From assembly GCA_947166385.1 (NCBI GenBank), contig CAMVEB010000017.1, positions 4,853 through 68,852 on the forward strand: a stretch of 64,000 nt of DNA. The letters are read 5' to 3'. The DNA is from an uncultured Clostridia bacterium (lineage in GTDB: Bacteria; Bacillota; Clostridia; Christensenellales; Aristaeellaceae). The notes beneath the pieces are model-generated. The model saw nothing but the letters and a program-made list of their open reading frames with translations. It searched no databases and was not told where the DNA came from. The position numbers and the translations under genes are program-made. This document shows positions 17,806 through 52,519 of this stretch, piece by piece; position 1 is the first letter of the stretch; every line of letters begins with the position of its first letter.

Positions 17806-19221
17806 TTACAGATCAATCTCAGTGCTCTCCCCGGATGCGTCCTTCAGCAGGGGGCTAACCCGGTCGAGGAATCGGGTCACCTGCTCCGCACACCGGCCGA
17901 TGTACAGCTTCGGATCCAGGATCTTTTCCATTTCCTCTTCCGAAAGCCCGAATTCCTTTTCCGCCGCCAGCCGCGCCAGCAGGTCGCATTCCCGTCCTTC
18001 GTTCATTCCCGCGGTGGCTTCCATGGAGCAGCGGCGGATGATCTCATGCAGTTCCTGTCGGTTACCGCCCCGTTTGACGGCTTCCATCAGCAGATTTTCG
18101 GTCGCCAGGAACGGCAGGTACTCCCGGATGGTTTTCTCCACGATTTTGTCATTCACCCGCAGTCCGTCCGTCACGTTCTGCGTCAGCCGCAGGATCGCGT
18201 CCGCGCACAGGAACCCTTCCGGCATGGAAATCCGTCGGTTCGCCGAATCGTCCAGCGTCCGCTCCAGCCACTGCGCGGAAGCTGTCAGCGGTGCGTTCAA
18301 GGCATCCGTCATCAGATAGCGGGACAGGGAACAGATCCGTTCGCACCGCATGGGATTCCGCTTATAGGCCATAGCTGAGGAGCCGATCTGGTTTTTCTCA
18401 AAAGGCTCCGCCAGCTGACGGTCATGCTGCAGCAGGCGGATATCATTGGCCATGCGGTATGCGCTCTGGGCGATGGAGGACAAGGCGTTCTGAATGCGGC
18501 TGTCCGTTTTCCGGGGGTAGGTCTGCCCGCACACATCGTAGCAGGCGGAAAACCCGAAAGCGGATGCCAGGGCCCGATTCATCTCATCGATTTTCCCGCC
18601 GTCTCCGTCAAACAGATCCAGAAAACTGGCTTCTGTTCCCGTTGTTCCCCGGCAACCGAGAAAGCAGATATTCTCCAGCACGAAATCAATTTCAGTCAGA
18701 TCCGCCAGAAAATCCTGCATCCAGAGAGTGGCTCGCTTCCCGATGGTCACCGGCTGGGCCGGCTGGTAATGGGTATAACCCAGCGTCGGCATGTCTTTGT
18801 ACTGCGCCGCAAATTTTGCCAGATGGGCCAGTACGTTGAGCAGTTCCCCCCTCAGGTATCGCAGTCCGTCCCGGTACAGGATCAGATCCGCGTTGTCCGT
18901 CACGTAGCAGCTGGTTGCACCAAGATGAATGATTCCCGCCGCGGAAGGCGCTGCCTTCCCATAAGTGTACACATGCGCCATCACGTCGTGACGAACTTCC
19001 TTTTCCCGTTGGCGTACGCATTCATAGTCAATATCTGTCTGATGGGCTTCCAGCTCTGCCACCTGCGCTTCCGTAATCGGAAGCCCGAGCCGGCTCTCCT
19101 CCCTGGCCAGGGCTGTCCAGAGCTTCCGCCAGGTCTGGTACCGGCTGTCCGGCGAGAACAGATGCAGCATATACTCCGAGGCGTATCGGGAAGCCAGAGG
19201 GGATTCATATCGGTCTGTCAT
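17806..19221 (-). CDS. purB: Adenylosuccinate lyase
   Basis: 'RYESPLASRY', 'IIHLGATSCYV', 'GSSAMAYKRNPM' signature; start ATG 19221. Confidence 0.95.
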   Translation of the reverse strand: MTDRYESPLASRYASEYMLHLFSPDSRYQTWRKLWTALAREESRLGLPITEAQVAELEAHQTDIDYECVRQREKEVRHDVMAHVYTYGKAAPSAAGIIHLGATSCYVTDNADLILYRDGLRYLRGELLNVLAHLAKFAAQYKDMPTLGYTHYQPAQPVTIGKRATLWMQDFLADLTEIDFVLENICFLGCRGTTGTEASFLDLFDGDGGKIDEMNRALASAFGFSACYDVCGQTYPRKTDSRIQNALSSIAQSAYRMANDIRLLQHDRQLAEPFEKNQIGSSAMAYKRNPMRCERICSLSRYLMTDALNAPLTASAQWLERTLDDSANRRISMPEGFLCADAILRLTQNVTDGLRVNDKIVEKTIREYLPFLATENLLMEAVKRGGNRQELHEIIRRCSMEATAGMNEGRECDLLARLAAEKEFGLSEEEMEKILDPKLYIGRCAEQVTRFLDRVSPLLKDASGESTEIDL

Positions 19222-19244
19222 TTCTTCATTCCTCCGGATCTTTT

Positions 19245-20522
19245 TCATTCCCTGATAATCATGCTGTCCCGTTCCGCACCGACGGAAATATAGGTGATCG
19301 GACATCCGATGGCCTTCTCGATCATGGTCACATAGGCCCGCGTCGCTTCCGGCAGTTCTTCCCACCGGCGGATTCCGGAAATATCCTGCTGCCATCCCGG
19401 CACCGTCACAGTCACCGGTTCCGCCTGTTTCAGCTCCGTTGGAAACGGAAACTCCTCCGTCTCTTCTCCGTTAATCCGATAGCGTACGCAAACCGGGATT
19501 TCCGTCATATCGCTCAGCACATCCAGCTTGGTCAGGGCTATCTTTGTCGCTCCCTGCATCTCCACGCCATACCGGGTCGCCACCAGGTCAATCGGGCCGA
19601 CCCGCCGGGGACGACCTGTTTTCGCGCCATATTCCTGTCCTGCCTGCCGAAGCCTTTCGGCTTCCTCGCCGAACATCTCGCAGACAAACGGACCTTCTCC
19701 AACGCAGGTGGAGTACGCCTTTACCACCCCGATCACTTCCTCTGCCCGCAGAGAAGGCAGCCCGGCTCCGATCGGTGCGTACGCCGCCAGGGTGTTGGAT
19801 GACGTCGTGTATGGATAGATTCCGTAATCCAGATCCCGCAGTGCGCCCAGCTGCGCTTCAAAAAGCATCCGCTTTCCCTGATCCCTGGCCTTCTTCAGGT
19901 AGCTCCCCGTATCACAGATAAACGGCTTCACCGGTTCGCACCAGTCATGGATCCACGTTTCAAGCATCTCCATGGTATACGGCTCGCTGCCATATACCTT
20001 CGTCAGCGTCAGGTTTTTCCATTCCAGCAGGTCGCGCAGATGTTCCCGTAATTCCGCTGGATGGAACAGTTCCCCGGCCATTACAGTTTTCTTCTGATAC
20101 TTGTCGGAATAGAACGGCGCGATTCCCTGTTTGGTGGAGCCGTACATCTTGTCTGCCAGGCGTTGTTCCTCCAGGGCGTCAAGATCCCGGTGCCACGGCA
20201 GAAGCAGCGATGCCCTGCTGCTGATCTTCAGGTATTCCGGTGTCACGGAAACGCCTTTCGAGGCAACCTCCGCTATTTCTTTCCACAGGTTCTCCGGATC
20301 CAGCGCCACGCCGTTTCCCAGAATGTTCACCACCCCGTCGTGGAAAATTCCGGAGGGCAGCAGGTGAAGGGCGAATTTGCCCTTTTCATTGATCACGGTA
20401 TGTCCCGCGTTGCCGCCGCCCTGATAGCGGATTACAAGATCGTAGTCGGCCGTCAGCAGGTCCACCACCCGGCCCTTTCCTTCGTCCCCCCAGTTAATCC
20501 CGACAATCGCGCAGGTTTTCAT
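19245..20522 (-). CDS. purA: Adenylosuccinate synthetase
   Basis: 'NWGDEGKG', 'YQGGGNAGHT', 'GAKTGRPRRVG', 'TKLDVL'. Confidence 0.96.
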   Translation of the reverse strand: MKTCAIVGINWGDEGKGRVVDLLTADYDLVIRYQGGGNAGHTVINEKGKFALHLLPSGIFHDGVVNILGNGVALDPENLWKEIAEVASKGVSVTPEYLKISSRASLLLPWHRDLDALEEQRLADKMYGSTKQGIAPFYSDKYQKKTVMAGELFHPAELREHLRDLLEWKNLTLTKVYGSEPYTMEMLETWIHDWCEPVKPFICDTGSYLKKARDQGKRMLFEAQLGALRDLDYGIYPYTTSSNTLAAYAPIGAGLPSLRAEEVIGVVKAYSTCVGEGPFVCEMFGEEAERLRQAGQEYGAKTGRPRRVGPIDLVATRYGVEMQGATKIALTKLDVLSDMTEIPVCVRYRINGEETEEFPFPTELKQAEPVTVTVPGWQQDISGIRRWEELPEATRAYVTMIEKAIGCPITYISVGAERDSMIIRE

Positions 20523-21709
20523 TTCGTTTCCTCCAGCAGTTTTCTGATCCGTTCCGCGGCAGTCTTTGTCTCTTCCGGCTTACCGAAGGAAGACAGGCGG
20601 AAATAGCCCTCCCCACAGGCGCCGAAGCCCTCGCCGGGCGTCCCAATCACCTGAATCTCGTTCAGCAGCAGGTCAAAGAAATCCCAGCTCTTCATCCCGT
20701 TCGGGCATGCCATCCAGATATACGGAGCGTTCTTTCCACCCCAGTACCGGATGCCGGTCTGGTCCAGCGCGTCCATCAGAACCTGGGCATTCTGTTTGTA
20801 AATCCGGATATTCTCCTGGATCTGCTCCAGCCCCTCGTCCGAGAAAACCGCGATCCCCGCCTTCTGCAGGAGGTAGGAGATCCCGTTCGTCTTCGTTGTC
20901 CGGTTCCGCACCCACATGGCGTTCAGGTTCATGCCGTCCCGCTCCAGTGCTTTCGGGATCACGGTGTAGCCGAGCCGTGTACCGGTAAATCCGGCCGTTT
21001 TGGACAGCGAGCAGATTTCGATGGCGCAGGTTTCCGCACCGGGAATCTCAAAAATGCTGTGCGGCAGATCCCCTTCAATGAAAGCCTCGTAGGCCGCGTC
21101 AAAAAGAATGACCGCGCCGTGCCGGTTGGCATAGCCTACCCAGCTTTGCAGCTGTTCCCGGCTGTAAACCGCGCCGGTGGGGTTGTTCGGGGAACACAGG
21201 TAGATCAGGTCCGCCGCTGTGTCATCCCCTGGCAGGGGCAGGAAGTCATTCTCCGGTCCGGCGTTCAGGAAGAAGGTCTTCCGCCCGGCCATCACGCTGG
21301 CATCCACATACGCCGGATAGGCGGGCTGCGTGATCAGCGCCGGGGAACCCGCGTCAAACAGATCCAGGATATCCCCCAGTTCATCGCTTGCTCCGCTGGA
21401 AACAAAGATTTCCTCCGGATCCGGATGCACGCCTCTCCGGCTGTAGTAGCCCGCAACGGCGGCCCGGAATTCCGGGATCCCGCATTCCGGCGTATACCCA
21501 TGAAAAGTTTCTTCCTTCGCCTGGTCGTCTGCCGCGCTGTGCAGCGCCTGGATTGCTGCCCGGCACAGCGGCAGCGAAACGTCCCCGATTCCCAGGCGGT
21601 ACAGAGGCTTTTCCGGATGTTCGGCCCGGTACGCGGCCACTTTCTGTGATATCCCGAAGAACAGGTAGGATTCCTTCAGGTTCCTGTAATTTCCATTCGG
21701 TTTCAGCAT
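20519..21709 (-). CDS. dapL: LL-diaminopimelate aminotransferase
   Basis: 'YLFFGI', 'LGIGDV', 'YPAYVD', 'CSPNNPTG', 'DAAYEAFI', 'SLSKTAGFTGTR', 'GTPGEGFG'. Confidence 0.9.
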   Translation of the reverse strand: MLKPNGNYRNLKESYLFFGISQKVAAYRAEHPEKPLYRLGIGDVSLPLCRAAIQALHSAADDQAKEETFHGYTPECGIPEFRAAVAGYYSRRGVHPDPEEIFVSSGASDELGDILDLFDAGSPALITQPAYPAYVDASVMAGRKTFFLNAGPENDFLPLPGDDTAADLIYLCSPNNPTGAVYSREQLQSWVGYANRHGAVILFDAAYEAFIEGDLPHSIFEIPGAETCAIEICSLSKTAGFTGTRLGYTVIPKALERDGMNLNAMWVRNRTTKTNGISYLLQKAGIAVFSDEGLEQIQENIRIYKQNAQVLMDALDQTGIRYWGGKNAPYIWMACPNGMKSWDFFDLLLNEIQVIGTPGEGFGACGEGYFRLSSFGKPEETKTAAERIRKLLEETK

Positions 21710-21720
21710 GTTGTCCTCCC

Positions 21721-23589
21721 TTATTCCACCGTGACGCTTTTCGCCAGGTTTCTCGGCTTGTCCACATCCAGCCCGCGGTTAACGCTGGTATAGTATCCAA
21801 GCAGCTGCAGCGGCACCACGGCCAGCGACGCCATGAAGTGTTCGTCCGTCTTTGGAATATACACCGTGAAGTTTACCGAATCCTCCAGGTCAAAATTGCC
21901 GTTTGTCGTGATACCCAGCAGATAGCCTCCCCGGGACTTGCATTCCATCATGTTGGAAACGGTTTTTTCATACAGGGCCTTCTGCGTCAGCACACCGATG
22001 ATCAGCGTATTGTTTTCCACCAGACTGATCGTTCCGTGTTTCAGTTCCCCGGCGGCGTAGGCTTCCGAATGAATGTAGCTGATCTCCTTCATCTTCAGGC
22101 TGCCTTCCAGGCTGATGGCATAGTCCAGCCCCCGGCCGATGAAGAAAATATCCCGGGTATTGGCCATCTTGGAGGAAAACCACTGCAGTCGTTCCTTCTC
22201 CTCCAGGATCCGGCTGATTTTTTCCGGAATCAGGGCCAGTTCCCCCAGCAGCCGCTCCGCTTCCTCCGCTGTCATTTTCTCCCGGATCCGGGCCATATGG
22301 ATTGCCAGCACATCCGAAGCAATCAGCTGGGCGCTGTAGGCTTTGGTCGTCGCCACGGCAATTTCCGGCCCCGCCAGGGTATACAGTACATGATCCGCTT
22401 CCCGCGCGATTGTGGATCCGATGACGTTCACGATAGCAAGTGTCTGGGCGCCCCGTTCCTTGGCAACCCGCAGTGCCGCAAGGCTGTCCGCCGTCTCCCC
22501 GGACTGAGAAATGATGATCACCAGGGTTCCCCCGCTGATTGGAATGCTGCGGTAGCGGAATTCCGAGGCCAGCTCCACCCGAACCGGGATTCCGGCCAGG
22601 TCCTCCATCACGTACTGAGCCGCCATGCCGACATGCCACGCGGACCCGCAGGCCACAATGACGATCTGTTCAATCGAACGGATCGCGTCCTCTGTCAGTC
22701 CCGTCTGGGACAGGTCGACCCATCCGTCCTTCACGATGCTGTTCAGTGTATCCCGCACAGCTCCCGGCTGCTCATGGATCTCTTTCAGCATGAAATGCTC
22801 AAATCCGCCCTTTTCCGCCGCTTCCGCGTCCCAGGTAATCTCCGTCAGCGGCATCTCAACCTCGTCCCCGTTCAGGTCATAGAACAGAGCCTTCCCCGGT
22901 GAAACCCGGGCCACCTGCAGGTTATCAATGTAATAGACCTGCCGGGTATATTTCAGAATGGCCGGTACGTCGGATGCCAGGTAGGCTTCCCCGTCCTCCG
23001 CCCCGATAATCAGCGGAGAATCTTTTCTCGCCGCGAAGATCTCATCCGGATAGTCCTTGAACATAAGCGCTAGGGCATAACTTCCCCGAATTCGCACCAT
23101 CGTCCGGGTAATGGCGTCCACCGGGCCGATTTTGTATTTTTTGTAGTAGTAGTCCACCAGCTTCACAGCCACTTCCGTGTCGGTGTCGCTGTAGAAGACG
23201 TATCCGTGCCGCAGCAGTTTTTCCTTCAACTCCGTATAGTTCTCAATGATCCCGTTGTGCACGCCCACCACATCGGATTCCACGGCACCGCTTCCGGATC
23301 CGGAGCAGTTCCCGCTGACATGGGGATGCGCGTTGACAATGCTGGGATCCCCGTGGGTAGCCCACCGGGTATGTCCGATCCCGCAGCATCCCGCCAGGGC
23401 CCGGCCCTGGTCGGTCTTGTCTGCCAGATGATACAGTTTCCCCGTCGCCTTGACAACCTCCGCCAGTGCTGCCCCGTTGCGTACAGCCAGCCCGGCGGAA
23501 TCATACCCCCGGTACTCCAGCCGGGAAAGGCTGTCCAGCAGAATGGGCGCCGCCTGCCGGCGCCCTGTGTATCCGACAATTCCGCACAT
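21721..23589 (-). CDS. glmS: Glutamine-fructose-6-phosphate transaminase
   Basis: 'MCGIVGY', 'EYRGYDSAG', 'GHTRWATHG', 'SQSGETAD', 'EAYAAGELKHG', 'DVDKPRNLAKSVTVE'; start ATG 23589. Confidence 0.97.
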   Translation of the reverse strand: MCGIVGYTGRRQAAPILLDSLSRLEYRGYDSAGLAVRNGAALAEVVKATGKLYHLADKTDQGRALAGCCGIGHTRWATHGDPSIVNAHPHVSGNCSGSGSGAVESDVVGVHNGIIENYTELKEKLLRHGYVFYSDTDTEVAVKLVDYYYKKYKIGPVDAITRTMVRIRGSYALALMFKDYPDEIFAARKDSPLIIGAEDGEAYLASDVPAILKYTRQVYYIDNLQVARVSPGKALFYDLNGDEVEMPLTEITWDAEAAEKGGFEHFMLKEIHEQPGAVRDTLNSIVKDGWVDLSQTGLTEDAIRSIEQIVIVACGSAWHVGMAAQYVMEDLAGIPVRVELASEFRYRSIPISGGTLVIIISQSGETADSLAALRVAKERGAQTLAIVNVIGSTIAREADHVLYTLAGPEIAVATTKAYSAQLIASDVLAIHMARIREKMTAEEAERLLGELALIPEKISRILEEKERLQWFSSKMANTRDIFFIGRGLDYAISLEGSLKMKEISYIHSEAYAAGELKHGTISLVENNTLIIGVLTQKALYEKTVSNMMECKSRGGYLLGITTNGNFDLEDSVNFTVYIPKTDEHFMASLAVVPLQLLGYYTSVNRGLDVDKPRNLAKSVTVE

Positions 23590-23613
23590 GCGCAAATCCT
23601 CCTCAAACAAATC

Positions 23614-23696
23614 AAAAAACAGGTGAATGTGCCGTCCTGCCTGACCTCATTGCCTGTCCGCGAAGGATTTTATCATGAATGATTCTTTCTTGTCAA
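23614..23696 (-). promoter_or_regulatory. Promoter plus ANTAR-like hairpin/terminator leader of the glmS operon
   Basis: TTGACA (23691-96), 18 nt, TAAAAT (23667-72); GGC-AATGAG-GTC (23643-54) overlapping an imperfect terminator ACAGG..AATG...CATT..CCTGT-TTTTT. Confidence 0.7.
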
Positions 23697-23731
23697 TACA
23701 TTATAATACAACAATACATTCTGAAGACAAC

Positions 23732-23767
23732 AGGGAACAGGCGCCGCGTCTGCGGCGCCTGTTCCCT
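23732..23767 (-). terminator. Strong hairpin downstream of amtB-PII
   Basis: 16-bp perfect stem AGGGAACAGGCGCCGC / GCGGCGCCTGTTCCCT with 4-nt loop; U-tract is weak. Confidence 0.65.
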
Positions 23768-23774
23768 CCCACTG

Positions 23775-25481
23775 TCAGTCGGATTGCAGTGCGTCGTACC
23801 CTTCCTCTCCTGTACGGACGCGTACCACATTCTCCACATCGGTAATAAAAATCTTGCCGTCTCCGATATGTCCCGTATGCAGGACATTCCTGGCCGTCTC
23901 GATCACCTCGCACACCGGCACCTTGCTCACCACGATATCCACCTGCACTTTCGGCAGCAGCGTCACTTCCACCGGTGTGCCGCGGTAGTACTCGGGCTTT
24001 CCTTTCTGTGCACCGTATCCCATGACGTTGGTAACAGTCATACCGGTAATTCCGATCCGGTTCATCGCTGTCTTCAGGCTCTCCAGACTGGCCGGACGAC
24101 AGATGATCTGAACCCGGGTATACACCGGTTCATCCGGCGCCTTCTCCTTCGCTTTCCGGACTGGTGTTTCCGCTGCGGCCGCAGCCGGAGCAGCTGTCGG
24201 AATAACCTCCCCGCCGCCGACGCTTTCTTCCGGAAGCATCGCGATTCCGGCGTACGCTGTCGGAAGTCCGTGTTCGCTGCGGTCCAGACCCATCACTTCA
24301 TCCGCGGAATCAGCCCGCAGACCGATTGCCTTTTTGATCAGCAGGAATACGACCGTAATAATCACTGCCGTCCAGGCGATCACCGTCAGCACCCCGAGGC
24401 ACTGAACTCCCAGGAATTTGAATCCGCCGCCGTAGAAAACACCTTTCATCGTGGTTTGTCCGGTAGCAAAGAAACCGGTCAGGATCGTGCCCAGCGCGCC
24501 GCATACACCGTGAACGGAAATTGCGCCGACCGGATCGTCGATTTTCACCACCCTGTCGAAAAAGCTCACAGCCAGCACCACGGCAAACCCGCAGACCACA
24601 CCGATCACGGCTGCTCCGAAGGGATCCACAGCGTCGCATCCCGCTGTGATGCCCACCAGCCCCGCCAGCGCTGCGTTGAAGGTCATGGAAACATCCGGCT
24701 TGCCGTACCTGATCCAGGTAAAGAGCATGGTGACCAGCGTCGCCAGGGCCGCCGACAGGTTCGTATTGAAGAACACCAGGCTGGCGGAGCCGATCAGCTC
24801 GTCGCTGTCCATCCCCACGGTGGAAGCGCCGTTGAAGCCGAACCAGCAGAACCAGAGGATGAATACCCCCAGCGCGGCAATGGACAGGTTGTGTCCCAGG
24901 ATGGCCCGGGGCTTTCCGTCCTTTCCGTATTTACCGATCCGGGGCCCCAGGATCTTCGCTCCGACCAGGGCGCAAACACCGCCGACCATGTGTACCGCCG
25001 TGGATCCGGCAAAATCATGGAATCCCATTTCCGCCAGCCAGCCGCCGCCCCAGATCCAGTGTCCGCTGACCGGATAAATAAACAGGGAAATCGCCGCGGA
25101 ATAGATGCAGTATGCTGAGAATTTGGTTCGCTCCGCCATCGATCCGGATACAATCGTTGCCGACGTCGCACAGAAAACCGTCTGGAAAATGGCAAACGCC
25201 CACAGCGGAACCCCCGCTGGCAGCACGCTTTCGTATTCCTTCATGATGAAAGGATCAATCCATCCGAAGACCGCCGTGCCTGTCCCGAACATAATCCCGA
25301 ATCCGAACAACCAGTACAGCGGGGTGCCGATGCAGAAATCCATCAGGTTCTTCATCAGGATATTACCGGTATTCTTGGCCCGGGTAAATCCGGCTTCGCA
25401 CATGGCAAACCCGGCCTGCATGAAGAAAACCAGCGCTGCGCCCAGCAGCACCCAGATTGTGTTCGCGGGAGAGTACATCAT
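23775..25481 (-). CDS. amtB: Ammonium transporter fused to a C-terminal PII (GlnK-like) domain
   Basis: Amt motifs 'FMQAGFAM', 'DFAGSTAVH', 'LWFCWFGFN', 'DDPVGAISVHG'; Ala/Pro linker; PII 'GITGMTV', 'YYRG', 'TGHIGDGKIF', 'RVRTGE'. Confidence 0.93.
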   Translation of the reverse strand: MMYSPANTIWVLLGAALVFFMQAGFAMCEAGFTRAKNTGNILMKNLMDFCIGTPLYWLFGFGIMFGTGTAVFGWIDPFIMKEYESVLPAGVPLWAFAIFQTVFCATSATIVSGSMAERTKFSAYCIYSAAISLFIYPVSGHWIWGGGWLAEMGFHDFAGSTAVHMVGGVCALVGAKILGPRIGKYGKDGKPRAILGHNLSIAALGVFILWFCWFGFNGASTVGMDSDELIGSASLVFFNTNLSAALATLVTMLFTWIRYGKPDVSMTFNAALAGLVGITAGCDAVDPFGAAVIGVVCGFAVVLAVSFFDRVVKIDDPVGAISVHGVCGALGTILTGFFATGQTTMKGVFYGGGFKFLGVQCLGVLTVIAWTAVIITVVFLLIKKAIGLRADSADEVMGLDRSEHGLPTAYAGIAMLPEESVGGGEVIPTAAPAAAAAETPVRKAKEKAPDEPVYTRVQIICRPASLESLKTAMNRIGITGMTVTNVMGYGAQKGKPEYYRGTPVEVTLLPKVQVDIVVSKVPVCEVIETARNVLHTGHIGDGKIFITDVENVVRVRTGEEGYDALQSD

Positions 25482-25514
25482 GATCCTCACTTCCGTTTCA
25501 GGTTATTTCCAACG

Positions 25515-25596
25515 AAAAAAGGCGCCGGGTGCTTCCACGCACCCTTGCGCCTTGTTGGATGGTCGTTATTGTATACAGTATCCATCTTCCTGTCAA
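25515..25596 (-). promoter_or_regulatory. Promoter plus ANTAR-like hairpin/terminator leader of amtB-PII
   Basis: TTGACA (25591-96), 17 nt, TACAAT (25568-73); GCGC-AAGGGT-GCGT (25537-50) overlapping terminator GGCGC..GGGTGC-GTGGAA-GCACCC.GCGCC-TTTTTT. Confidence 0.8.
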
Positions 25597-25643
25597 GTGA
25601 AAAACAACTGAAATACAAAAGATCAAAAATCTTTCTCTTTTCG

Positions 25644-27050
25644 TCAGCGCCAGGAGCAAAGGAACCGGTGTGCTTCCCGCGCGGCCGCCTGTCCGTCCGC
25701 CAGCGCACGAACCACCAGGCTCTGCCCTGTCCGCATGTCTCCGGCGCTGAACAGTTTTCCGCCCAGGCAGTGGGATCCGTCCTCCGGCATCAGCCTTCCC
25801 CTGGGATCCGTCGCCAGTCCGAATTGCTTCGGGATCTTTTCCTCGCAGCCTGTGAATCCGGCTGCGATCAGCATCAGTTCGCACGGCAGGATTTCTTCCG
25901 ATCCCGGCACAGGTTCCATCTTCCCTGCCGGTGTTCTCCGCAGTTTCACGATTTCCGCACCGGTCATCTTATTCTGGTCGTCCGTCAGAATCCGCTTGAC
26001 CGTCGTCTCGTAAACCCGCGGATCGCTGCCCTGCACAGCCACGGCCTCCGTCTGGCCGTAGTCCGTCCGCAGCGTCCTCGGCCACTCCGGCCAGGGATTG
26101 CCGGATGTCCGGATGGCCGGGGGAGCCGGCATCATCTCCAGCTGGGTCACGGAGGCGCACCCCTGGCGCAGCACGGTACCCACGCAGTCGTTTCCCGTAT
26201 CCCCGCCGCCGACGACAATCACATGCCTGCCCTCCGCGAACCGGCAGTTCTCGCCCCGCAGCAGCGCTTTCGTGGTCTTGGTCAGATAGTCCACCGCGAA
26301 GCAGATGCCTTCCGCATCCATGTGTTCAGCGTTCAGCGTCCTGGGTTTTCTGGACCCGCCGCACAGTATCACGGCATCATAAGCCTCCAGTTCTTCCGGG
26401 TCCGCTTCCCGTCCGGTCCGGAAAACCACACCTTCCTCCTCCATCAGCCGGATTCGCCTTTCCACAATGCCCTTCGGCAGCTTCATGTTCGGAATCCCGT
26501 ACATCAGTAGCCCGCCGGGCCGGTCTGCCCGTTCAAACACAGTCACCGCGTGTCCCATTCGGTTCAGCAGATCCGCCGCCGCCAGTCCCGCCGGGCCGCT
26601 GCCGATGACAGCCGCCTGTTTTCCGGTTCGCACAGTGGGAACCCGCCGCCTGATCCAGCCCTTCTCGAATCCTTTTTCAATCAGATACAGCTCGTTGTCC
26701 CGGTTCGTCACACCGTCGTCCGCCAGGTTGCAGGCTTTTTCGCACAGAGCCGGGCAAACCCGTCCCGTGAATTCCGGAAAAGGCGCTGTTTCCAGCAGGC
26801 GTTCCAGCGCTTCCTTTTCCAGTCCCCGGTACAGCAGGTCGTTCCATTCCGGAATCAGGTTGTGCAGCGGGCATCCAAAGGCTGACTGGCAGAACGGAAC
26901 CCCGCAGTTCATGCAGCGCGAAGCCTGACAGGCCCGCTCTTCCGCTCCCTGTGGAATATGCAGGTCTTCATAGTCGGAAAGCCTCTCCCGGGCGTCCCGG
27001 AACAGGTTCTCCTTCCGGGCATACTCCAGAAAACCGGTTGCTTTGCCCAT
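25644..27050 (-). CDS. gltD: Glutamate synthase small (NAD(P)H) subunit
   Basis: 'MGKATGFLEY', 'RCMNCGVPFC', 'FPEFTGRVCPALCE', 'GSGPAGLAAA', 'GGGDTGNDC', 'AGDMRTGQSLVV'. Confidence 0.95.
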   Translation of the reverse strand: MGKATGFLEYARKENLFRDARERLSDYEDLHIPQGAEERACQASRCMNCGVPFCQSAFGCPLHNLIPEWNDLLYRGLEKEALERLLETAPFPEFTGRVCPALCEKACNLADDGVTNRDNELYLIEKGFEKGWIRRRVPTVRTGKQAAVIGSGPAGLAAADLLNRMGHAVTVFERADRPGGLLMYGIPNMKLPKGIVERRIRLMEEEGVVFRTGREADPEELEAYDAVILCGGSRKPRTLNAEHMDAEGICFAVDYLTKTTKALLRGENCRFAEGRHVIVVGGGDTGNDCVGTVLRQGCASVTQLEMMPAPPAIRTSGNPWPEWPRTLRTDYGQTEAVAVQGSDPRVYETTVKRILTDDQNKMTGAEIVKLRRTPAGKMEPVPGSEEILPCELMLIAAGFTGCEEKIPKQFGLATDPRGRLMPEDGSHCLGGKLFSAGDMRTGQSLVVRALADGQAAAREAHRFLCSWR

Positions 27051-27053
27051 TGC

Positions 27054-30000
27054 TCAAGCCCCCTTCATATAGGCCAGGTATTCATCGGAAATAACAGCCC
27101 GGAATTTTGGCAGATATTCCCGGAACGACGCCAGGATTTCCGCGGCCTTTCGGGATCCCGTCGCTTTCTCGTGCATGGTCAGCAGGCGTTCCAGTTCCCC
27201 GGCTTCCTCCGGCGCCACCGGATACATCCGGACATGTCCGGAATTCAGGTGATCCTTCAGTCTGTCGTTTTCATCCAGCACCCAGGCAATCCCGCCGCTC
27301 ATGCCGGCTGCAAAGTTGTCCCCCGCAGGGCCCAGGATAGCCACCCGGCCGCCGGTCATATACTCGCATCCGTGATCCCCGACGCCTTCCGCCACGGCCC
27401 ACGCGCCCGAATTCCTCACAGCGAACCGTTCTCCGGCCATACCGGCAACAAAGGCATATCCGCCGGTTGCTCCGTACAGGGCCACATTGCCGATCAGCGT
27501 ATCCTCCTGCCGCCAGATACTGTCCGCCGGCGGACAGACCGCCAGTGTTCCGCCGGATAATCCCTTGCCCAGGTAATCGTTTGCCACGCCGAACAGCGTG
27601 ATTGTCTGTCCTGCCGGCAGGAAAGCGCCGAAGGACTGACCGCCGCACCCCAGCGCCTGGATGTTTCTTTCCCCTTTGAGCATCGTTCCGAAGGCCCGGT
27701 CCGTTGTCATCAGGTGCACATGGTTCTGGAAAAGCCGCGCATCCGTCCGCTCCGCCAGATGGAAATCATGCTTCGCTTCCGGGCGGAAGTATGTATTCCG
27801 CGCAAAACCGATCAGGTCGCTCAGATCCATTCTGGCATCTGTTTTCATTTTCAGCAGGTCGCTGCGTCCCACCAGCTCGTTCACCGTGCGCGCGCCCAGC
27901 TTTGCCATGATCTCCCGCAGCTGCTCCGCGATAAACAGCATGAACCGTTCCACATACTCCGGTTTCCCGGCAAACTTCTTCCGCAGTTCCGGGTTCTGTG
28001 TGGCGATGCCAAAGGGGCAGGTTCCCAGGTGGCATACCCGCATCATCCGGCACCCCATGGTGACCAGCGGTGCCGTAGCAAACCCAAACTCTTCCGCCCC
28101 CAGCAGCAGCGCCACCGCCACATCATGGCCGGTCATCAGCTTTCCGTCCGTCTCCAGCGTCACCGTCTGCCGCAGCCGGTTCCGGCACAGCACCTGGTGA
28201 GCCTCCGCCAGGCCGATCTCCCACGGCAGTCCCGCATGGTGCACGCTGCTCAGCGGCACCGCGCCGGTCCCGCCTTCCCCGCCAGAGATCAGGATCCCGC
28301 CCGCGCCGGCCTTGGCCACGCCGCTGGCGATTGTTCCCACGCCGGTAGAAGAAACCAGTTTGACGGTAATCTTTGCGTTTTCATTGGCGCATTGCAGGTC
28401 GTAAATCAGTTCCGCCAGATCCTCAATCGAGTAGATATCGTGGTGAGGAGGCGGAGAAATCAGCGAGATTCCCGGTGTGGAGCAGCGGGTTCTCGCCACG
28501 CTGTCCGTTACCTTGGCCCCAGGCAGGTGTCCGCCCTCTCCCGGCTTTGCTCCCTGGGCCATCTTAATCTGAATCTCCTTTGCACTCAGCAGGTATTCCC
28601 GCGTCACGCCGAACCGGCCGGAGGCCACCTGCTTGATCGCGGAATTCAGGTCCGTCCCGAACCGTTCAGGCAGTTCCCCGCCTTCTCCGCTGTTGGATTT
28701 CCCGCCCAGGTGGTTCATCGCCCGGGCCATGCATTCGTGCGCCTCCTGCGATATCGAGCCATAGCTCATGGCGCCGGTCCGGAAGCGCTTTACAATGGAT
28801 TCCGCGCTCTCTACTTCTTCCAGCGGCACTTCCCGGCAGGCTTCAAACCGGAATTCCAGCATCGAGCGGATCGTCCGCGGCCCGTCGTTTTCCACCTGCG
28901 CGGCATACCGGTCAAACAGTTCCCGGCTGTCGGTCATCACCGCCTGCTGCAGCAGATGAATCGTCTCCGGGGAATACAGGTGTTCTTCCGCCTGCGGCCC
29001 GGTCCGCAGCCGGTGTATACCGATCGCCGGCAGACCTTTCCCGTCCTCGCCGAACGCTTCTGCGTGATGGAATCGGCTGTCCGCCTCCACCCTGTCCAGA
29101 TCCGTCCCCCCCAGGGTGCACGGGGTGTTTGTGAAGTATTTTTCAACAAATGGCCTGTCCAGTCCCACGGTTTCAAACAGTTGCGCGCTCTGGTAAGCCT
29201 GCAGGGTGGAAACGCCCATCTTGGATGCGATCTTCAGCACCCCGGCCGTCAGTGCCCGATCATAGTTTCGCAGGGCGGTCTCCGGCTCCGTCGTAATTGC
29301 GCCGTTCTTGCACAGATTCAGGATCCAGGCGTGCGCCAGGTAGGGATTCACCGCCCGCGCGCCGAATGCCGTCAGCAGCGCCAGATGATGAACATCCCGC
29401 GGTTCTCCGCTCTCCAGCACCACGGAAACAGCCGTTCTTTTCTTGATCCGGATCAGGTGCTGCTCCAGCGCGGACACCGCCAGCAGCGACGGAATCGCCA
29501 GGTGCTCCGCGTCCACACCCCGGTCGGAAAGGATCAGGATGTTGATCCTGTCCCGGCAGGCCTGATCGCAGGCCGCAAACAGGGACTCCAGCGCGTCCCG
29601 GAGATTCCCGTCTGTCGGATACAGAATGGAAACCGTGCGCACGGCAAACGCCGGATGCCGGATCTCCCGGATTCTCCGGAATTCTTCCTCTGTCAGGACC
29701 GGGGAAGGCAGTTCCAGCACCGTACAGTTCTCCGGTTCATGGGACAGCAGGTTCCCGTCGTCCCCGATATAGATGGAACAGTCTGTTTTGATTTCTTCCC
29801 GCAGTGCGTCGATCGGGGGGTTTGTCACCTGCGCGAACCGCTGTTTGAAGTAGTCAAACAGCGGGGGATGCGTCTTCGACAGCGCCGCCAGGGGTTCATC
29901 CGCCCCCATGGATACGATGGGTTCCGTCCCGTTTTCCGCCATCGGCCGCAGGATGTCCTGTACGTCTTCCCATGTATAGTGGAAAGCCTTGGCCAGCCGT

Positions 30001-31370
30001 TTCATGCGGTTTTCTACGGCGGTTTCCGTTTCTTTCTCCGCCTTCGGCAGATCCTCCAGTCGGATCACGTTCCGTGTCCATTCTCCGTAGGGATACGCCT
30101 GGGCATAGCGGGTCTTGACCTCGCTGCTCTCGGTCAGCCTGCCGCTTTCCAGATCCGCTTCCAGCACATCCCCGGCCTTCAGTTTCCACCGGCGCACTAT
30201 GTGCGCGTTTTCCTCAAACAGCACCCCCGCTTCCGAGGAAAGGATCAGCCGGTGGTCATCCGTCAGTGCGCAGCGCAGCGGACGCAGGCCGTTCCGGTCC
30301 AGGGAAGCGCATATTTTTTCCCCGTCGGTGTAAAGCACCGCCGCCGGTCCGTCCCACGGTTCCATCATCGTGGCATAGTAGCGGTAAAGATCCCGCCAGG
30401 CCGTTTCTCTTTCCACCCCCTGCCAGGGTTCCGGCATCAGGATCATCCCGGCCAGGGACAGGGGGATCCCGTTCATCGTCAGGAATTCCAGCGCGTTATC
30501 CAGCATCTGGCTGTCGCTTCCGCCTTCCGCGACCACCGGAAGCACCCGCTGCATCTCCTTTCCCATCACGGCGGAGCGCATGGTTTCCTCCCGGGCTTTC
30601 ATCCGGTCATGATTGCCCCGGATGGTGTTGATTTCCCCGTTGTGCAGCAGCATCCGATGCGGATGTGCCTTGCTCCAGGATGGAAAGGTATTCGTGGAAA
30701 ACCGGGAATGGACCATCGCCATCCGGCTCGTGTACCGGGCGTCCTGCAGGTCGTCATAGAAAGACCGCAGCTGGTTGACCAGCATCATTCCCTTGTAAAC
30801 CACTGTCCGGCTGGAAAGGGAGCAGATGTAGGTATCCGTGTCCTGTTTTTCAAAAACGCGCCGCAGGATATACAGCTGCCTGTCAAAATCCTGTCCGGCT
30901 TTTGTTTCCCCGGGACGCCTCAGAAAGCACTGGCGGATCCGCGGCATCGTGCTGCGTGCGCCGGGGCCCAGCTGCGCCGGATGGCACGGAACCACCCGCC
31001 AGCCCAGCACCGGAATCCGTTCCGCTTTCGCCACCTGCTCAAAGATCCTGCAGGCGTTCTCCGCGGCTACCTCGTCCTCCGGCAAAAAAAACATCCCCAC
31101 GCCGTAATCTCCCGGCCGGCCCAGGGAAATTCCCTCCTCCTGGGCCCACGCGGAAAAAAGGCTGTGGGGCAGTTCCGTCAGAATCCCGACCCCGTCGCCG
31201 GTGGTTCCCTGCGCGTCGCTTCCGGCCCGGTGGGCCAGGCGCTCCACGATGGAAAGCGCCTGGTCCACGGTCCGGTGCGTGGCGCGGCCGTTCAGGTCCG
31301 CCACTGCGCCGACACCGCAGTTTTCATGTTCCAGTTCTTCCTGGTAAAGGGGATATTGTCGGTCCCGCAT
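27054..31370 (-). CDS. gltB: Glutamate synthase large subunit
   Basis: 'ENCGVGAV', 'HSRFSTNTFPSW', 'HNGEINT', 'MEPWDGP', 'IKQVASGRFGV', 'QGAKPGEGGHLPG', 'CRMMRVCHLGTCPFG', GXGXG domain. Confidence 0.97.
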   Translation of the reverse strand: MRDRQYPLYQEELEHENCGVGAVADLNGRATHRTVDQALSIVERLAHRAGSDAQGTTGDGVGILTELPHSLFSAWAQEEGISLGRPGDYGVGMFFLPEDEVAAENACRIFEQVAKAERIPVLGWRVVPCHPAQLGPGARSTMPRIRQCFLRRPGETKAGQDFDRQLYILRRVFEKQDTDTYICSLSSRTVVYKGMMLVNQLRSFYDDLQDARYTSRMAMVHSRFSTNTFPSWSKAHPHRMLLHNGEINTIRGNHDRMKAREETMRSAVMGKEMQRVLPVVAEGGSDSQMLDNALEFLTMNGIPLSLAGMILMPEPWQGVERETAWRDLYRYYATMMEPWDGPAAVLYTDGEKICASLDRNGLRPLRCALTDDHRLILSSEAGVLFEENAHIVRRWKLKAGDVLEADLESGRLTESSEVKTRYAQAYPYGEWTRNVIRLEDLPKAEKETETAVENRMKRLAKAFHYTWEDVQDILRPMAENGTEPIVSMGADEPLAALSKTHPPLFDYFKQRFAQVTNPPIDALREEIKTDCSIYIGDDGNLLSHEPENCTVLELPSPVLTEEEFRRIREIRHPAFAVRTVSILYPTDGNLRDALESLFAACDQACRDRINILILSDRGVDAEHLAIPSLLAVSALEQHLIRIKKRTAVSVVLESGEPRDVHHLALLTAFGARAVNPYLAHAWILNLCKNGAITTEPETALRNYDRALTAGVLKIASKMGVSTLQAYQSAQLFETVGLDRPFVEKYFTNTPCTLGGTDLDRVEADSRFHHAEAFGEDGKGLPAIGIHRLRTGPQAEEHLYSPETIHLLQQAVMTDSRELFDRYAAQVENDGPRTIRSMLEFRFEACREVPLEEVESAESIVKRFRTGAMSYGSISQEAHECMARAMNHLGGKSNSGEGGELPERFGTDLNSAIKQVASGRFGVTREYLLSAKEIQIKMAQGAKPGEGGHLPGAKVTDSVARTRCSTPGISLISPPPHHDIYSIEDLAELIYDLQCANENAKITVKLVSSTGVGTIASGVAKAGAGGILISGGEGGTGAVPLSSVHHAGLPWEIGLAEAHQVLCRNRLRQTVTLETDGKLMTGHDVAVALLLGAEEFGFATAPLVTMGCRMMRVCHLGTCPFGIATQNPELRKKFAGKPEYVERFMLFIAEQLREIMAKLGARTVNELVGRSDLLKMKTDARMDLSDLIGFARNTYFRPEAKHDFHLAERTDARLFQNHVHLMTTDRAFGTMLKGERNIQALGCGGQSFGAFLPAGQTITLFGVANDYLGKGLSGGTLAVCPPADSIWRQEDTLIGNVALYGATGGYAFVAGMAGERFAVRNSGAWAVAEGVGDHGCEYMTGGRVAILGPAGDNFAAGMSGGIAWVLDENDRLKDHLNSGHVRMYPVAPEEAGELERLLTMHEKATGSRKAAEILASFREYLPKFRAVISDEYLAYMKGA

Positions 31371-31383
31371 GTTCCATCCTCCC

Positions 31384-31920
31384 CTATCGGTTCTTTTGCT
31401 TTTCCTCTTGGATGATGCTGGCAGCGTACTCAGCCATTTTGATGCTGTGGTCCATCGCCTGTTTCTGAAGCAGGTGATGCGCCTCCGGTTCTGTAAGATG
31501 CAGCTGTTTCATCAGGATTTCCTTGGCCTGCTCCACCAGTTCCTTCTCCGCGCCGGCCCGACGGGGCATCTGCCGCCGGTGAAGCTGGTTCAGCATTTCA
31601 ATCGCCCCGGCGATGGTCTGTCCCGTAGTCGGAACCGGCAGCCGGAAAACTTCCGGCGATTCGCAGTTCTCCAGGATGGCCGGTTTGGCGATCCAGAGGA
31701 TCTGTACCCGTTCGCCGTAGTCCCAGACCAGCTCCTCCGGCTTGCAGTCAGGGATCTGTCCCAGATAGATCAGGATGCTGTCCTCGCTTTCAGACAGTGC
31801 TCTCCTCAGGCTGCTTCCCGATGTACAGCAGCGGTATACGGAATAACCGGAGGAAGCAAGCAGCCGGGCTATCTGATCGCGGGTCGTTTCCGATATGCCG
31901 GCGATGATCATTCGCGCCAC
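31384..31920 (-). CDS. ANTAR-domain antitermination regulator with degenerate receiver domain (NitR-like)
   Basis: C-terminal 'LVEQAKEILMKQLHLTEPEAHHLLQKQAMDHSIKMAEYAASII' matches ANTAR (IxxAKxxLMxxxxxxExxAxxxLxxxSM); position glnA-[this gene]-gltB-gltD as for clostridial nitR; GTG start with GGAGG RBS. Confidence 0.85.
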   Translation of the reverse strand: MARMIIAGISETTRDQIARLLASSGYSVYRCCTSGSSLRRALSESEDSILIYLGQIPDCKPEELVWDYGERVQILWIAKPAILENCESPEVFRLPVPTTGQTIAGAIEMLNQLHRRQMPRRAGAEKELVEQAKEILMKQLHLTEPEAHHLLQKQAMDHSIKMAEYAASIIQEEKQKNR

Positions 31921-31965
31921 TGGATCTTCCTCCTTTGATTCAGATTGGGCTCCCCTGATTCGTCA

Positions 31966-33297
31966 TCAGTACATCACGATATACCGTTCAATCTCCCAGC
32001 GGCTGACATGGGTGCGATACGCATCCCATTCCTTTTCCTTGCCTTCCACATACTGCCCCAGCACATGCTCGCCCAGTGCCTTGCAGATCACATCGTCTGC
32101 CTTCAGGCATTCCACCGCGTCCTTCAGGGTGCCGGGCAGGGAGCGGATGCCTTTCGCTTCCCGCGTTTCCGCGTCCATGGCAAAGATGTTTTCCGTAATC
32201 TCGTCCGGGGGCGTCAGTCCTTTCCGGATGCCGTCCAGTCCTGCTGCCAGGCACACTGCCATGTTCAGGTAGGGGTTGCAGCTGGGATCCGGGCACCGGA
32301 GTTCCACGCGCGTTCCCATCCCGCGGGCAGCGGGAATCCGGATCAGAGCGGACCGGTTGCTCGCGCTCCAGGCCAGGTAGCACGGCGCCTCATATCCGGG
32401 AACCAAGCGCTTGTAGCTGTTCACCAGCGGGTTGGTCACCGCCGCCATGCCGCGGATATGCTCCAGAATCCCGGCGATGAAGGAATATGCTTCCTTACTC
32501 AGTCCCCGGCTGTCAGCGGGATCGGCAAACACGTTCTTTCCGTCCTTGAACAGGCTCATGTTTGTGTGCATGCCGCTGCCGTTGATTCCGAATACAGGCT
32601 TCGGCATGAATGTCGCGTGCAGTCCATTCTTCTGGGCCAGGGTCTTGACCGCCAGCTTGAACGTCATGATATTGTCCGCCGCTGTCAGCGCGTCGGCATA
32701 TTTGAAGTCGATCTCATGCTGTCCTGCTGCCACTTCATGGTGGCTGGCCTCGATTTCGAATCCCATCTGTTCCAGCGCCAGGCAGATCTCACGCCGGGTG
32801 CTCTCGCCATGGTCCAGCGGCCCCAGGTCAAAGTATCCGGCTTCGTCGGATGTCGCGGTCGTGGGTTTTCCCTGCTCATCCGTCTGGAAGAGGAAGAATT
32901 CCATTTCCGGCCCGACATTGAAGGAATATCCCATGTCCGCCGCTTCCTGCAGTACCTTCTTCAGAACCCCGCGGGGATCTCCTGCGAAGGGCGTCCCATC
33001 CGGGTTGTAAACGTCGCAGATCAGCCGGGCCACTTTCCCGTGCTGCGGCCGCCAGGGCAGAATCGCGAAGGTATCCAGATCCGGCCGCAGGTACTGATCA
33101 CTCTCGTTGATGCGCACAAATCCTTCGATAGAGCTGCCGTCAATCATAATTTCATTGTTGACAGCCTTTTCGATCTGGCTCGCCGTGATTGCCACGTTCT
33201 TCAGCTGGCCGAAAATATCGGTAAACTGCATGCGGATAAACTCCACGTCGCCTTCCCGAACCATCCGGATAATGTCCTCTTTCGTGTACTTGCTCAT
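31966..33297 (-). CDS. glnA: Type I glutamine synthetase
   Basis: '[14 protein letters not shown]', 'DGSSIEGF', '[10 protein letters not shown]', '[15 protein letters not shown]', '[13 protein letters not shown]', 'ELRCPD'; start ATG 33297. Confidence 0.97.
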
Positions 33298-33345
33298 ACA
33301 TGAAACCCCCTTCAAACAATTCTGCCGGTTCCTGCGGCATAAATC

Positions 33346-33427
33346 AAAAACAGGCAAGTCCAGCCATGATCCATGGCTCCCTTGCCTTGTATGCGGGGAT
33401 CATATCACCCGTTTTTTTCGCTGTCAA
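33346..33427 (-). promoter_or_regulatory. Promoter plus ANTAR-like hairpin/terminator leader of the glnA operon
   Basis: TTGACA (33422-27), 17 nt, TATGAT (33399-404); GGC-AAGGGA-GCC (33375-86) overlapping terminator AGGCAAG..AGCCATG-GAT-CATGGCT..CTTGCCT-GTTTTT. Confidence 0.85.
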
Positions 33428-33491
33428 GCGTTTCTTCGCGTTTTGAATTGTTTTCCCTTTGTATTCACTGCGGCATCCTCCAGCTTGCTGC

Positions 33492-33571
33492 TTGACAAGC
33501 CCTGACCGGAATGATACCATACCTGCCAACAAGGCAAGGGTGTCCTGTGATGGGGATATCCTTCCTTTTTT
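33492..33571 (+). promoter_or_regulatory. Promoter plus ANTAR-like hairpin/terminator leader of asnB-guaA
   Basis: TTGACA 33492-97, 17 nt, TACCAT 33515-20; GGC-AAGGGT-GTC 33533-44 overlapping terminator stem 33536-45/33554-63 (plus AAGG/CCTT) and T-run to 33571. Confidence 0.8.
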
Positions 33572-33607: not shown

Positions 33608-35188
33608 ATGTGTTCTATCTTCGGTCTGACCAGTGCCAGGGTACCCCGGGAGCTGATGGAAACCTGCTTTAACCGCACCTTGTCCCGTGGGCCGGATATG
33701 AGCCGTCTGGAGGACATTCCCGGCGGAGTCCTCGGTTTCCACCGGCTGGCCATCATGGGTCTGAACGAGCGGGGCATGCAGCCCTTTCATCTCGGCGGCG
33801 ACAGGGTGGTCTGCAACGGGGAGCTGTACGGTTTCCGTCCCTTGCGCGAGCGTCTGATGGAAACATATGAGATCAAAGGGGAATCCGATTGTGAAATCCT
33901 TCTCCCTCTGTATCATGAGTACGGGGTGGAGATGTTCAAAACGCTGGATGCCGAGTTTGCGCTGATCCTCTATGACAGCGAGCGGAGCAAAGTGATTGCC
34001 GCCCGGGATCCGATCGGCATCCGCCCGTTGTATTACGGCCGGCTGGAGGATGGGGAATGGGCCTTCGCCAGCGAACCGAAGAACCTCATGGATCTTTGTG
34101 ATACGATTCTCCCCTTCCCGCCCGGGCATTACTGGATGGACGGGGAATTCGTTCAGTATGCGGATCCCGCTTATGTAGGATATTTCACCATGAAAACCGA
34201 GCCGGATGTCTGTGCCAAGCTCCGCCGCCTGCTGATGGACGGGGTTGAAAAAAGGCTGGACGCGGACGCGCCGGTCGGTTTCCTGCTCTCCGGCGGCCTG
34301 GATTCGTCCCTCGTCTGTGCCATCGCCCAGCGGTTTCTGCCCCATCCGATCCGCACTTTTGCCATCGGCATGGATCTCGATGCGATTGACCTGAAGTATG
34401 CCCGCATGGTCGCGGATTATATCGGCAGCGAGCATACTGAAGTCATCATCAGTGAAAAGGATGTCCTCGAAGCGCTCCCGACGGTGGTGGAGCTCCTCGC
34501 CACCTGGGATATCACCACCATCCGCGCTTCCATCGGTATGTACCTGGTCTGCAAATGGATCCATGAACATACGGATATCCGCGTCCTGCTGACCGGGGAA
34601 ATCTCCGATGAGCTCTTTGGGTATAAATATACGGATTTCGCCCCATCCGCCGCCGCCTTCCAGGAGGAAGCGGAAAAACGCATCCGGGAGCTCCACGTTT
34701 ACGATGTTCTCCGGGCGGATCGCTGCATCTCCGTCAACAGTCTGGAAGCCCGTGTCCCCTTCGGTGATCTGAAGTTTGTCCGCTATGCCATGAGCATTGA
34801 TCCCGAGTTGAAAATGAACAACCACAATATGGGCAAGTATCTGATCCGTAAGGCCTTCGCCGAGGATCACATCCTTCCGGATGAAATCCTCTGGCGCCAG
34901 AAGGCCGCTTTCTCCGATGCGGTGGGCCATTCCATGGTAAACGATCTGAAGAACTTTGCCGAAAGAACCTATACCGACAAGGAATTTGCCGAAAAATCGG
35001 CGAAATATGATTACTGCCCTCCTTTCACCAAGGAGAGCCTGCTGTACCGGGAGCTGTTTGAGCAGTTTTATCCCGGTCAGTCGCATATGATTCCCGATTT
35101 CTGGATGCCAAATAAAACTTGGCCCGGTTGTGATGTGGATGATCCTTCCGCCAGAGTCCTGGCAAACTACGGGGACAGCGGCAAATAA
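33608..35188 (+). CDS. asnB: Asparagine synthetase B (glutamine-hydrolysing)
   Basis: 'MCSIFG', 'RGPD', 'FHRLAIMG', 'CNGELY', '[11 protein letters not shown]', 'LLSGGLDSS', '[10 protein letters not shown]', 'LEARVPF'. Confidence 0.95.
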
Positions 35189-52503: not shown

Positions 52504-52519
52504 GTGGGAGGCGGACAGA

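Follow-up and report, generated by a model that had tools for sequence, protein, structure and literature searches.

Predicted one-hairpin ANTAR-type leaders upstream of nitrogen genes in an uncultured Clostridia bacterium

Ramesh 2012 (PMC3369931) defined the RNA target of ANTAR regulators by two hairpins, called both features essential and found many nitrogen regulons with this dual-hairpin model; in a 2025 review the named ANTAR targets are given as dual hairpins (PMC12591593). According to Walshe 2022 (PMC8934654), a EutV dimer is in contact with just one hexaloop at any moment, and one hexaloop makes up the minimal binding motif, with a successive binding of the two hairpins, P1 and then P2, still being proposed. 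Concerning nitrogen genes, the Geobacter regulator GnfR binds RNA with CAGGCAAGGGCGCC, and mutating this site abolishes binding (Ueki and Lovley 2010, PMC2995071), while NitR of Clostridium saccharobutylicum, an ANTAR protein encoded with the glutamine synthetase and GOGAT genes, is said, in work cited in PMC6316151, to induce them by antitermination under nitrogen limitation. Here we describe six transcript leaders on a stretch of 64,000 nucleotides (nt) from an uncultured Clostridia bacterium of the Aristaeellaceae (GCA_947166385.1, contig CAMVEB010000017.1, positions 4,853 to 68,852; hereafter the window). These leaders are probably ANTAR-type transcription attenuators that use one ("P2-only") hairpin. 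ANTAR antitermination of nitrogen genes is a known control; what would be new here is the one-hairpin architecture, which lacks one defining feature of the published target motif, and we found no open-access paper that describes one-hairpin ANTAR attenuators.

The six leaders, with their matches to R1, a covariance model of the leader, and their folding energies (RNAfold), are as follows.

3562-3638, plus strand: leader of the AGCS gene, read directly (R1 E=0.004); -35 TTGACA at 3562-3567, -10 TAAACT at 3585-3590, hairpin GAAGGC-AAGAGC-GUCUUC at 3597-3614, terminator and U-run ending at 3638; hairpin alone -6.9 kcal/mol, terminator -25.4 kcal/mol.
23614-23696, minus strand: leader of the glmS-aminotransferase-purA-purB-pyrG operon (R1 E=2.3e-5); promoter at 23696-23667, hairpin GGC-AAUGAG-GUC at 23654-23643, weak terminator (-11.3 kcal/mol) and U-run ending at 23614.
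25515-25596, minus strand: leader of amtB-glnK, a fused open reading frame (ORF) (R1 E=0.005); promoter at 25596-25568, hairpin GCGC-AAGGGU-GCGU at 25550-25537, contained in the terminator GGCGC..GGGUGC-GUGGAA-GCACCC.GCGCC followed by U6 (-25.7 kcal/mol).
33345-33427, minus strand: leader of glnA-ANTAR-gltB-gltD, the top R1 match (48.5 bits, E=7e-11); promoter at 33427-33399, hairpin CAAGGC-AAGGGA-GCCAUG at 33389-33372 (core GGC at 33386-33384), terminator (-21.8 kcal/mol) and U-run ending at 33345.
33492-33571, plus strand: leader of asnB-guaA, divergent from glnA (R1 E=1.4e-8); promoter at 33492-33520, hairpin GGC-AAGGGU-GUC at 33533-33544, terminator at 33536-33563, U-run to 33571.
52433-52502, plus strand: leader of purC (R1 E=1.6e-6); extended -10 TGaTACGAT, hairpin ACUGGC-AAGGGC-GUCGGU at 52459-52476, terminator followed by U7.

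All six leaders carry a near-consensus sigma-A promoter. In a promoter scan, those of glnA, asnB, amtB and glmS scored 10-11 of 12 consensus positions with spacers of 17-18 nt, while shuffled sequence gave 0.5-1.2 such sites. The distance from the -10 hexamer to the core stem is 9 nt for AGCS (TAAACT), 12 nt for glnA (TATGAT), asnB (TACCAT) and glmS (TAAAAT), 13 nt for purC (TACGAT) and 17 nt, measured to GCGC, for amtB (TACAAT); on direct reading, these are exactly the values given by an earlier note on this DNA, the original prediction. Each leader contains one C-G-closed hexaloop hairpin, with cores such as GGC-AAGAGC-GUC in AGCS and GGC-AAGGGA-GCC in glnA, and five of the six loops (AAUGAG, AAGGGU twice, AAGGGA and AAGGGC) follow the A1/G4 hexaloop rule. 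The hairpin consensus is CAAGGC-AAGGGN-GYCNUG; CAAGGCAAGGGAGCCAUG is an 18-nt hairpin of this form.

Every hairpin of the window overlaps an intrinsic terminator with a U-run, and the overlap involves the terminator 5' arm both in these six and in all 33 leaders collected for comparison. Specifically, the hairpin loop and 3' strand double as the 5' arm; for glnA, asnB and amtB this extends to the entire hairpin. The minimum-energy fold of the six leaders is the terminator (-11 to -26 kcal/mol), and the hairpin alone, in the first 22-28 nt, reaches -2.3 to -6.9 kcal/mol. Hairpin and terminator exclude each other, and their energies are far apart.

For the comparison we used 151 genomes of the same family; about 4 kb on each side of the ANTAR gene was taken in 20 of them, together with 5 rumen metagenome-assembled genomes (MAGs). 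The leader set, drawn from this genome and about 20 relatives, numbers 33, and the alignment (A2) comprises 31 leaders. The glnA leader is present in about 19 of the 20 related genomes with a common layout, consisting of TTGAC(A), a 17-nt spacer, (TG)nTAnnnT, about 12 nt ending in ..ACAA and GGC-AAGGGN-G(U/C)C, followed by a terminator whose 3' arm ..CCUUGCC pairs back onto GGCAAGG. The divergent asnB/glnA leader pair is also found in relatives L034, L042 and L052-L054. The recurrence of this predicted hairpin-terminator module before glnA is far beyond chance. In 27 of the 33 leaders the -10 hexamer lies 11-13 nt from the core stem, and the full stem with its extension pairs starts 8-10 nt after the -10.

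In the 31 aligned leaders the three core pairs always form, the pair types being GC/AU/CG/GU, then GU/GC/AU, then an invariant closing CG. The original prediction had described a GGC/GCGC core stem; this core was confirmed, and the stem proved to be longer, with C-G and A-U pairs lying past a 1x1 mismatch, nearer the promoter. Each of these two extension pairs is made in 22 leaders, and double changes number 4 for C-G and 3 for A-U. Over the six-position stem, 80% of the cells are paired; sliding the partner by 1-3 columns lowers this to 27-43%. The covariation score of 0.302 (0.161 in shuffles) was attained by none of 500 shuffles. Loop positions 1-2 are invariant and positions 3-5 are at least 90% conserved. 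In addition, RNAalifold run on a MAFFT alignment of 18 glnA leaders independently gave the hexaloop hairpin and nothing else. The terminator 3' arms align poorly, and terminators were judged sequence by sequence. The same glnA leader layout, with a weaker hairpin, was observed next to two distant homologues of the ANTAR protein (38-43% identity), L047 (G012, 2527-2605) and L050 (G126), where the hairpin (C)AGAGC-AAAGGU-GUGAUG has internal mismatches and lies inside the terminator GAGCAAAGG...CCUUUGCUC.

Could a second hairpin have escaped notice? If these leaders were canonical dual-hairpin substrates, P2 would be a cryptic, degenerate hairpin in the terminator, for instance its apical stem-loop. 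Apical loops of 6 nt do exist (GUGGAA in amtB, UGUGAU in asnB), and for other Clostridia, Table S2 of Ramesh 2012 places dual-hairpin model matches ahead of ANTAR and glutamine synthetase genes. However, a second A1/G4 hexaloop hairpin of at least 3 base pairs (bp) between the -10 and the U-run was found in 1 of the 33 leaders, against 0.9 expected from shuffles. The apical loops, in which the original prediction had placed a weak second hexaloop, vary between 3 and 8 nt without conserved residues, and that proposal finds no support; in glnA-type leaders the apical stem and the extended hairpin cannot coexist because both use the GYCNUG strand, and in the C19 leader, elsewhere in this genome, the RNA remaining after the hairpin is too short for another one. 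A cryptic P2 is, in our judgement, decidedly unlikely. We give still less credence to real start sites located further upstream, with a P1 hairpin in RNA that overlaps the apparent promoter. The start sites are indeed predicted ones, and 4 of the 33 leaders have some A..G.. hairpin within the upstream 79 nt, but these four are AU-rich, differ in position and are not conserved. No conserved hairpin was found in the 79 nt scanned upstream of the 33 leaders; the sole conserved elements there are the -35 and the -10 (TTGACA, 17-nt spacer, (TG)nTAnnnT), whose distance to the hairpin stays the same in over 30 leaders of many genera. The tandem P1 and P2 with a short linker of the Ramesh 2012 motif were looked for and were absent, while its stem (3 bp or more, conserved closing pair) and its overlap with the terminator 5' arm are present. 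As the original prediction had proposed, there appears to be one ANTAR hairpin and no room for P1, and these comparisons argue for the single-hairpin reading and give no support to a cryptic second loop. Its premise that EutV-type recognition needs tandem P1 and P2 is dated as regards binding, for which a single hexaloop is the minimal motif, and holds in so far as two hairpins are still proposed for antitermination (Walshe 2022, PMC8934654).

A different question is what reads the element. The protein might recognize a single-stranded AAGGG tract of the terminator 5' arm in the manner of TRAP or PyrR, which act by blocking such an arm directly, the small hairpin being incidental, and the loop AAGGGN is in fact more conserved than the stem and is itself terminator arm in glnA-type leaders. 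This reading appears unlikely given that the stem pairs in 100% of the leaders with compensatory changes (extensions GCGC/GCGU, AGC/GCU, GAC/GUC, ACUGGC/GUCGGU and AAAGGC/GUCUUU), and that solved ANTAR-RNA complexes bind structured hexaloops (PMC8934654). Alternatively, the element might not be an ANTAR target at all and might instead be a small riboswitch, a small RNA site or the target of another protein. In this respect ANTAR binding is putative, and among the 26 of 151 family genomes with an R1 match at E<=1e-4, three have no ANTAR homologue at E<=1e-10; the other 23 have one. An 18-nt hairpin is, however, too small for a ligand pocket, and no Rfam family matched, neither at the gathering threshold nor at E<=5. 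ANTAR homologues occur in 55 of the 151 genomes, and the motif is found in 21 of the 23 genomes with the closest ones. The present assembly, 94.6% complete, has a single ANTAR gene (PF03861; 64.8 bits in the genome search), which is the window gene, and its operon is headed by the glnA leader. Moreover, the motif core is identical to the site bound by GnfR: the core of that site, GGC-AAGGGC-GCC, equals the hairpin of relative L042. We consider a non-ANTAR element very improbable.

The 178-amino-acid product of this gene scored 62.9 bits for the ANTAR domain, against a curated cut-off of 27.3 (Pfam PF03861). A profile of 15 homologues matched Rv1626, a receiver plus ANTAR protein, over its full length (E=2e-10), and matched NasR, EutV and AmiR over the ANTAR domain, the match to the AmiR PDB entry covering the ANTAR region only (E=2e-6). 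The features of a phosphorylated response regulator of the EutV, GnfR or Rv1626 type were looked for in the protein and were absent. Specifically, g-i-l-v-l-a/G stands at the phospho-acceptor Asp position (DLVIMD) and A-S / A-G at the acidic pair, and the 15 homologues have no conserved Asp at the former. As the whole family has other residues in place of this Asp and of the acidic pair, we regard the N-terminal domain as a pseudo-receiver. Its Cys32 and Asp67 are invariant in the 15 homologues. In the ANTAR domain, the aromatic residue stacking on G4 of the loop is Tyr for EutV, Phe for Rv1626 and Trp for NasR; this position is occupied here by a near-invariant histidine, His148.

Across the genome R1 finds 8 leaders, namely the six of the window, that of gdhA and that of a phosphoenolpyruvate (PEP)/pyruvate-binding-domain gene; naive scans were too noisy, and this count rests on a stricter hairpin scan together with R1. 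The last of these leaders, the C19 leader mentioned above (G000:C19:37338, minus strand), precedes an 810-amino-acid PEP/pyruvate-binding-domain-like protein and is a perfect example of the one-hairpin layout, reading TTGACA, 17-nt spacer, TACATT, 7 nt, AGC-AAGGGA-GCU. Three scan candidates that R1 did not confirm were left uncounted: C12 -816 (DUF1294-like small membrane protein), C60 +2983 (binding protein) and C44 -4377 (thiamine diphosphate enzyme). A leader with GGC-AAAGGC-GCC was also observed before a circularly permuted ATP-grasp gene (G000:C44:4654, plus strand; N-terminus ..LARYGVKFG.YKNG..), below R1 detection. In L076, of another Clostridia family, a circularly permuted ATP-grasp gene has a hairpin-terminator leader with GGC-AA(A/G)GGC-GCC; because this gene family carries the motif there, the C44 +4654 leader stays a possible member of the regulon.

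The three other genomes of the genus have 3-4 R1 matches each, and at class level R1 matches were found in five genomes of other families. No leader motif was found at the Desulfobacterota loci that a single-protein search had retrieved by ANTAR-domain-only matches, alongside its only other yield, 5 close rumen MAGs. In three of the five genomes from other Clostridia families (L075, L078 and L079), a type III glutamine synthetase gene lies behind two attenuators in a row, each made of a single hairpin and a terminator of its own; the matches map to about 1501-1557 of the locus and about 20-60 nt further downstream, with the hairpins AAGGC-AAGGGC-GUCUU and then GGC-AA(A/U)GGN-GUC. The predicted one-hairpin unit is widespread in Clostridia, and tandem units of this kind might be taken for dual hairpins. 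The original prediction had placed the hairpin at the transcript 5' end, which the promoter spacing bears out for the six leaders, yet this position is not essential, as the second unit of these other families lies inside the transcript. Since the unit is also found away from the 5' end, its promoter-proximal position reflects the short leader rather than recognition.

All together, these data suggest the following mechanism. Transcription would start about 7 nt past a strong sigma-A -10, and the first 20 nt or so of the RNA could fold as CAAGGC-AAGGGN-GYCNUG. By default, the hairpin would form first in the nascent RNA, the terminator 3' arm would displace it and transcription would end before the gene. 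When nitrogen is limiting, a dimer of the NitR-like ANTAR protein, encoded between glnA and gltB, would clamp the AAGGGN hexaloop and the C-G closing pair; in the clamped hairpin the AAGGG and GYC nucleotides would be kept from CCCUU of the 3' arm, and RNA polymerase would read through. A P1 recruitment hairpin would not be used. As the receiver-like domain is without a phospho-acceptor, a partner or ligand, rather than a kinase, probably governs the protein's activity, candidate signals being PII/GlnK, glutamine synthetase and glutamine/2-oxoglutarate. The regulon would include ammonium uptake and assimilation (amtB-glnK, glnA-gltBD, gdhA) and biosynthesis that consumes nitrogen donors (asnB-guaA, glmS..pyrG, purC).

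Several points weigh against this proposal. In vivo, EutV required both hairpins, and an RNA-binding monomer failed to antiterminate (PMC3369931, PMC8934654); because EutV needed both, the sufficiency of one hairpin is put forward as a proposal only. From the emergence of the hairpin to the termination decision there are only about 10-15 nt of transcription. The start sites are predicted from promoter consensus and conservation, and binding of the ANTAR protein and read-through at the leaders are putative, being deduced from the single ANTAR gene, the co-occurrence in 23 of 26 genomes and the GnfR-site core. As for the leaders themselves, position 4 of the AGCS loop (AAGAGC) is A instead of G, and the terminator of glmS is weak. 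Finally, most relatives have the glnA leader alone at the threshold used, and the wide regulon may be confined to this genus.

The window has a GC content of 57%, and its closest public relatives are rumen "Clostridiales/Clostridia bacterium" MAGs. Gene identities were assigned by Pfam. A nitrogen-assimilation cluster lies on the minus strand, with asnB and guaA divergent from it and purC and the AGCS-type gene away from it.

16147-23610, minus strand: glmS, an aminotransferase gene, purA, purB and pyrG.
23775-25490, minus strand: amtB-glnK fusion (Ammonium_transp and P-II in one ORF).
25644-27050, minus strand: gltD.
27054-31370, minus strand: gltB.
31384-31920, minus strand: NitR-like ANTAR gene, 178 amino acids, pseudo-receiver plus ANTAR (Pfam ANTAR, 2.3e-17), between glnA and gltB.
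31966-33300, minus strand: glnA.
33608-35188, plus strand: asnB, divergent from glnA, followed by guaA.
52475-53233, away from the cluster: purC (SAICAR_synt).
3675-5206, away from the cluster: AGCS-type gene (alanine/glycine:cation symporter-like).

The ORF at 23775-25490 encodes a fused transporter-PII protein of 571 residues, with Ammonium_transp at residues 13-409 and P-II at residues 458-562, and not two genes. Directly after its stop codon we observed a strong, GC-rich hairpin of 16 bp (23732-23767, minus strand) with a T-poor tail (GTTGTCTTCA), and TGTATT repeats sit between this hairpin and the glmS promoter.

By the textbook view, antitermination by ANTAR proteins requires two hexaloop hairpins in tandem, and a conserved natural family with one hairpin is a direct test system for this rule. 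The family would control glutamine synthetase, GOGAT, ammonium uptake and several biosynthesis operons consuming nitrogen donors in rumen and gut Clostridia. Such a system could show whether one hairpin is sufficient, what takes over the role of the recruitment hairpin and by what means an ANTAR protein with a pseudo-receiver and no kinase perceives nitrogen. We lean slightly towards the view that nitrogen regulators of the NitR/GnfR type normally act, through their ANTAR domain, on one-hairpin attenuators throughout Clostridia and possibly elsewhere. In that case, the two-hairpin rule would be specific to EutV, NasR and AmiR, and an ANTAR dimer on a single hexaloop at the transcript start would be enough to defeat a terminator. 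In addition, searches with the dual-hairpin model are suggested to under-count or mis-describe ANTAR regulons, and some published "dual-hairpin" matches before nitrogen genes may be single or tandem single-hairpin attenuators. In practice, the 18-nt element and its small regulator could make a compact nitrogen-responsive switch.

By comparing these leaders with the EutV/eut (Enterococcus faecalis), NasR/nasF and AmiR/amiE systems, it appears that they share the ANTAR output domain, the A1/G4 hexaloop with its conserved closing pair and stem of at least 3 bp, the competition of the hairpin with an intrinsic terminator and the tie to nitrogen metabolism. Unlike EutV-type leaders, those described here have one hairpin at the transcript start, without P1 or linker, and a tighter loop (AAGGGN); in glnA-type leaders the whole hairpin lies in the terminator 5' arm, whereas in EutV-type leaders only the 3' half of P2 does. 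The regulator also differs from EutV and NasR, having a pseudo-receiver instead of a phosphorylated receiver or a NIT domain, and His in place of the G4-stacking Tyr of EutV. By its pseudo-receiver it resembles AmiR of Pseudomonas aeruginosa, a small protein (about 190 amino acids) with an unphosphorylatable receiver-like N-terminal domain and an ANTAR domain. AmiR has a coiled coil and is controlled by a protein partner, AmiC, and its amiE leader is described as a dual hairpin; no AmiC-like gene lies near the ANTAR gene of the window.

The likeness to GnfR of Geobacter sulfurreducens concerns both function and target. Also an ANTAR protein, GnfR regulates nitrogen genes (nifH, glnK, amtB) whose leaders carry premature terminators, and its bound site CAGGCAA(N)GGCGCC is essentially the motif described here, GGC-AANGGC-GCC. 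However, GnfR belongs to another phylum, is activated as a true response regulator by the kinase GnfK and acts at RpoN-dependent promoters, and its site is described as upstream of the terminator hairpin and not as a hairpin embedded in the terminator. NitR is likened here by description and not by sequence: both ANTAR genes lie inside a glutamine synthetase/GOGAT cluster. The order in the window is glnA-ANTAR-gltB-gltD, with the motif in the glnA leader, and that of C. saccharobutylicum is glnA-nitR-gltAB. The regulon proposed here is wider than that of NitR, extending to asnB-guaA, glmS..pyrG, purC, gdhA and the AGCS gene.

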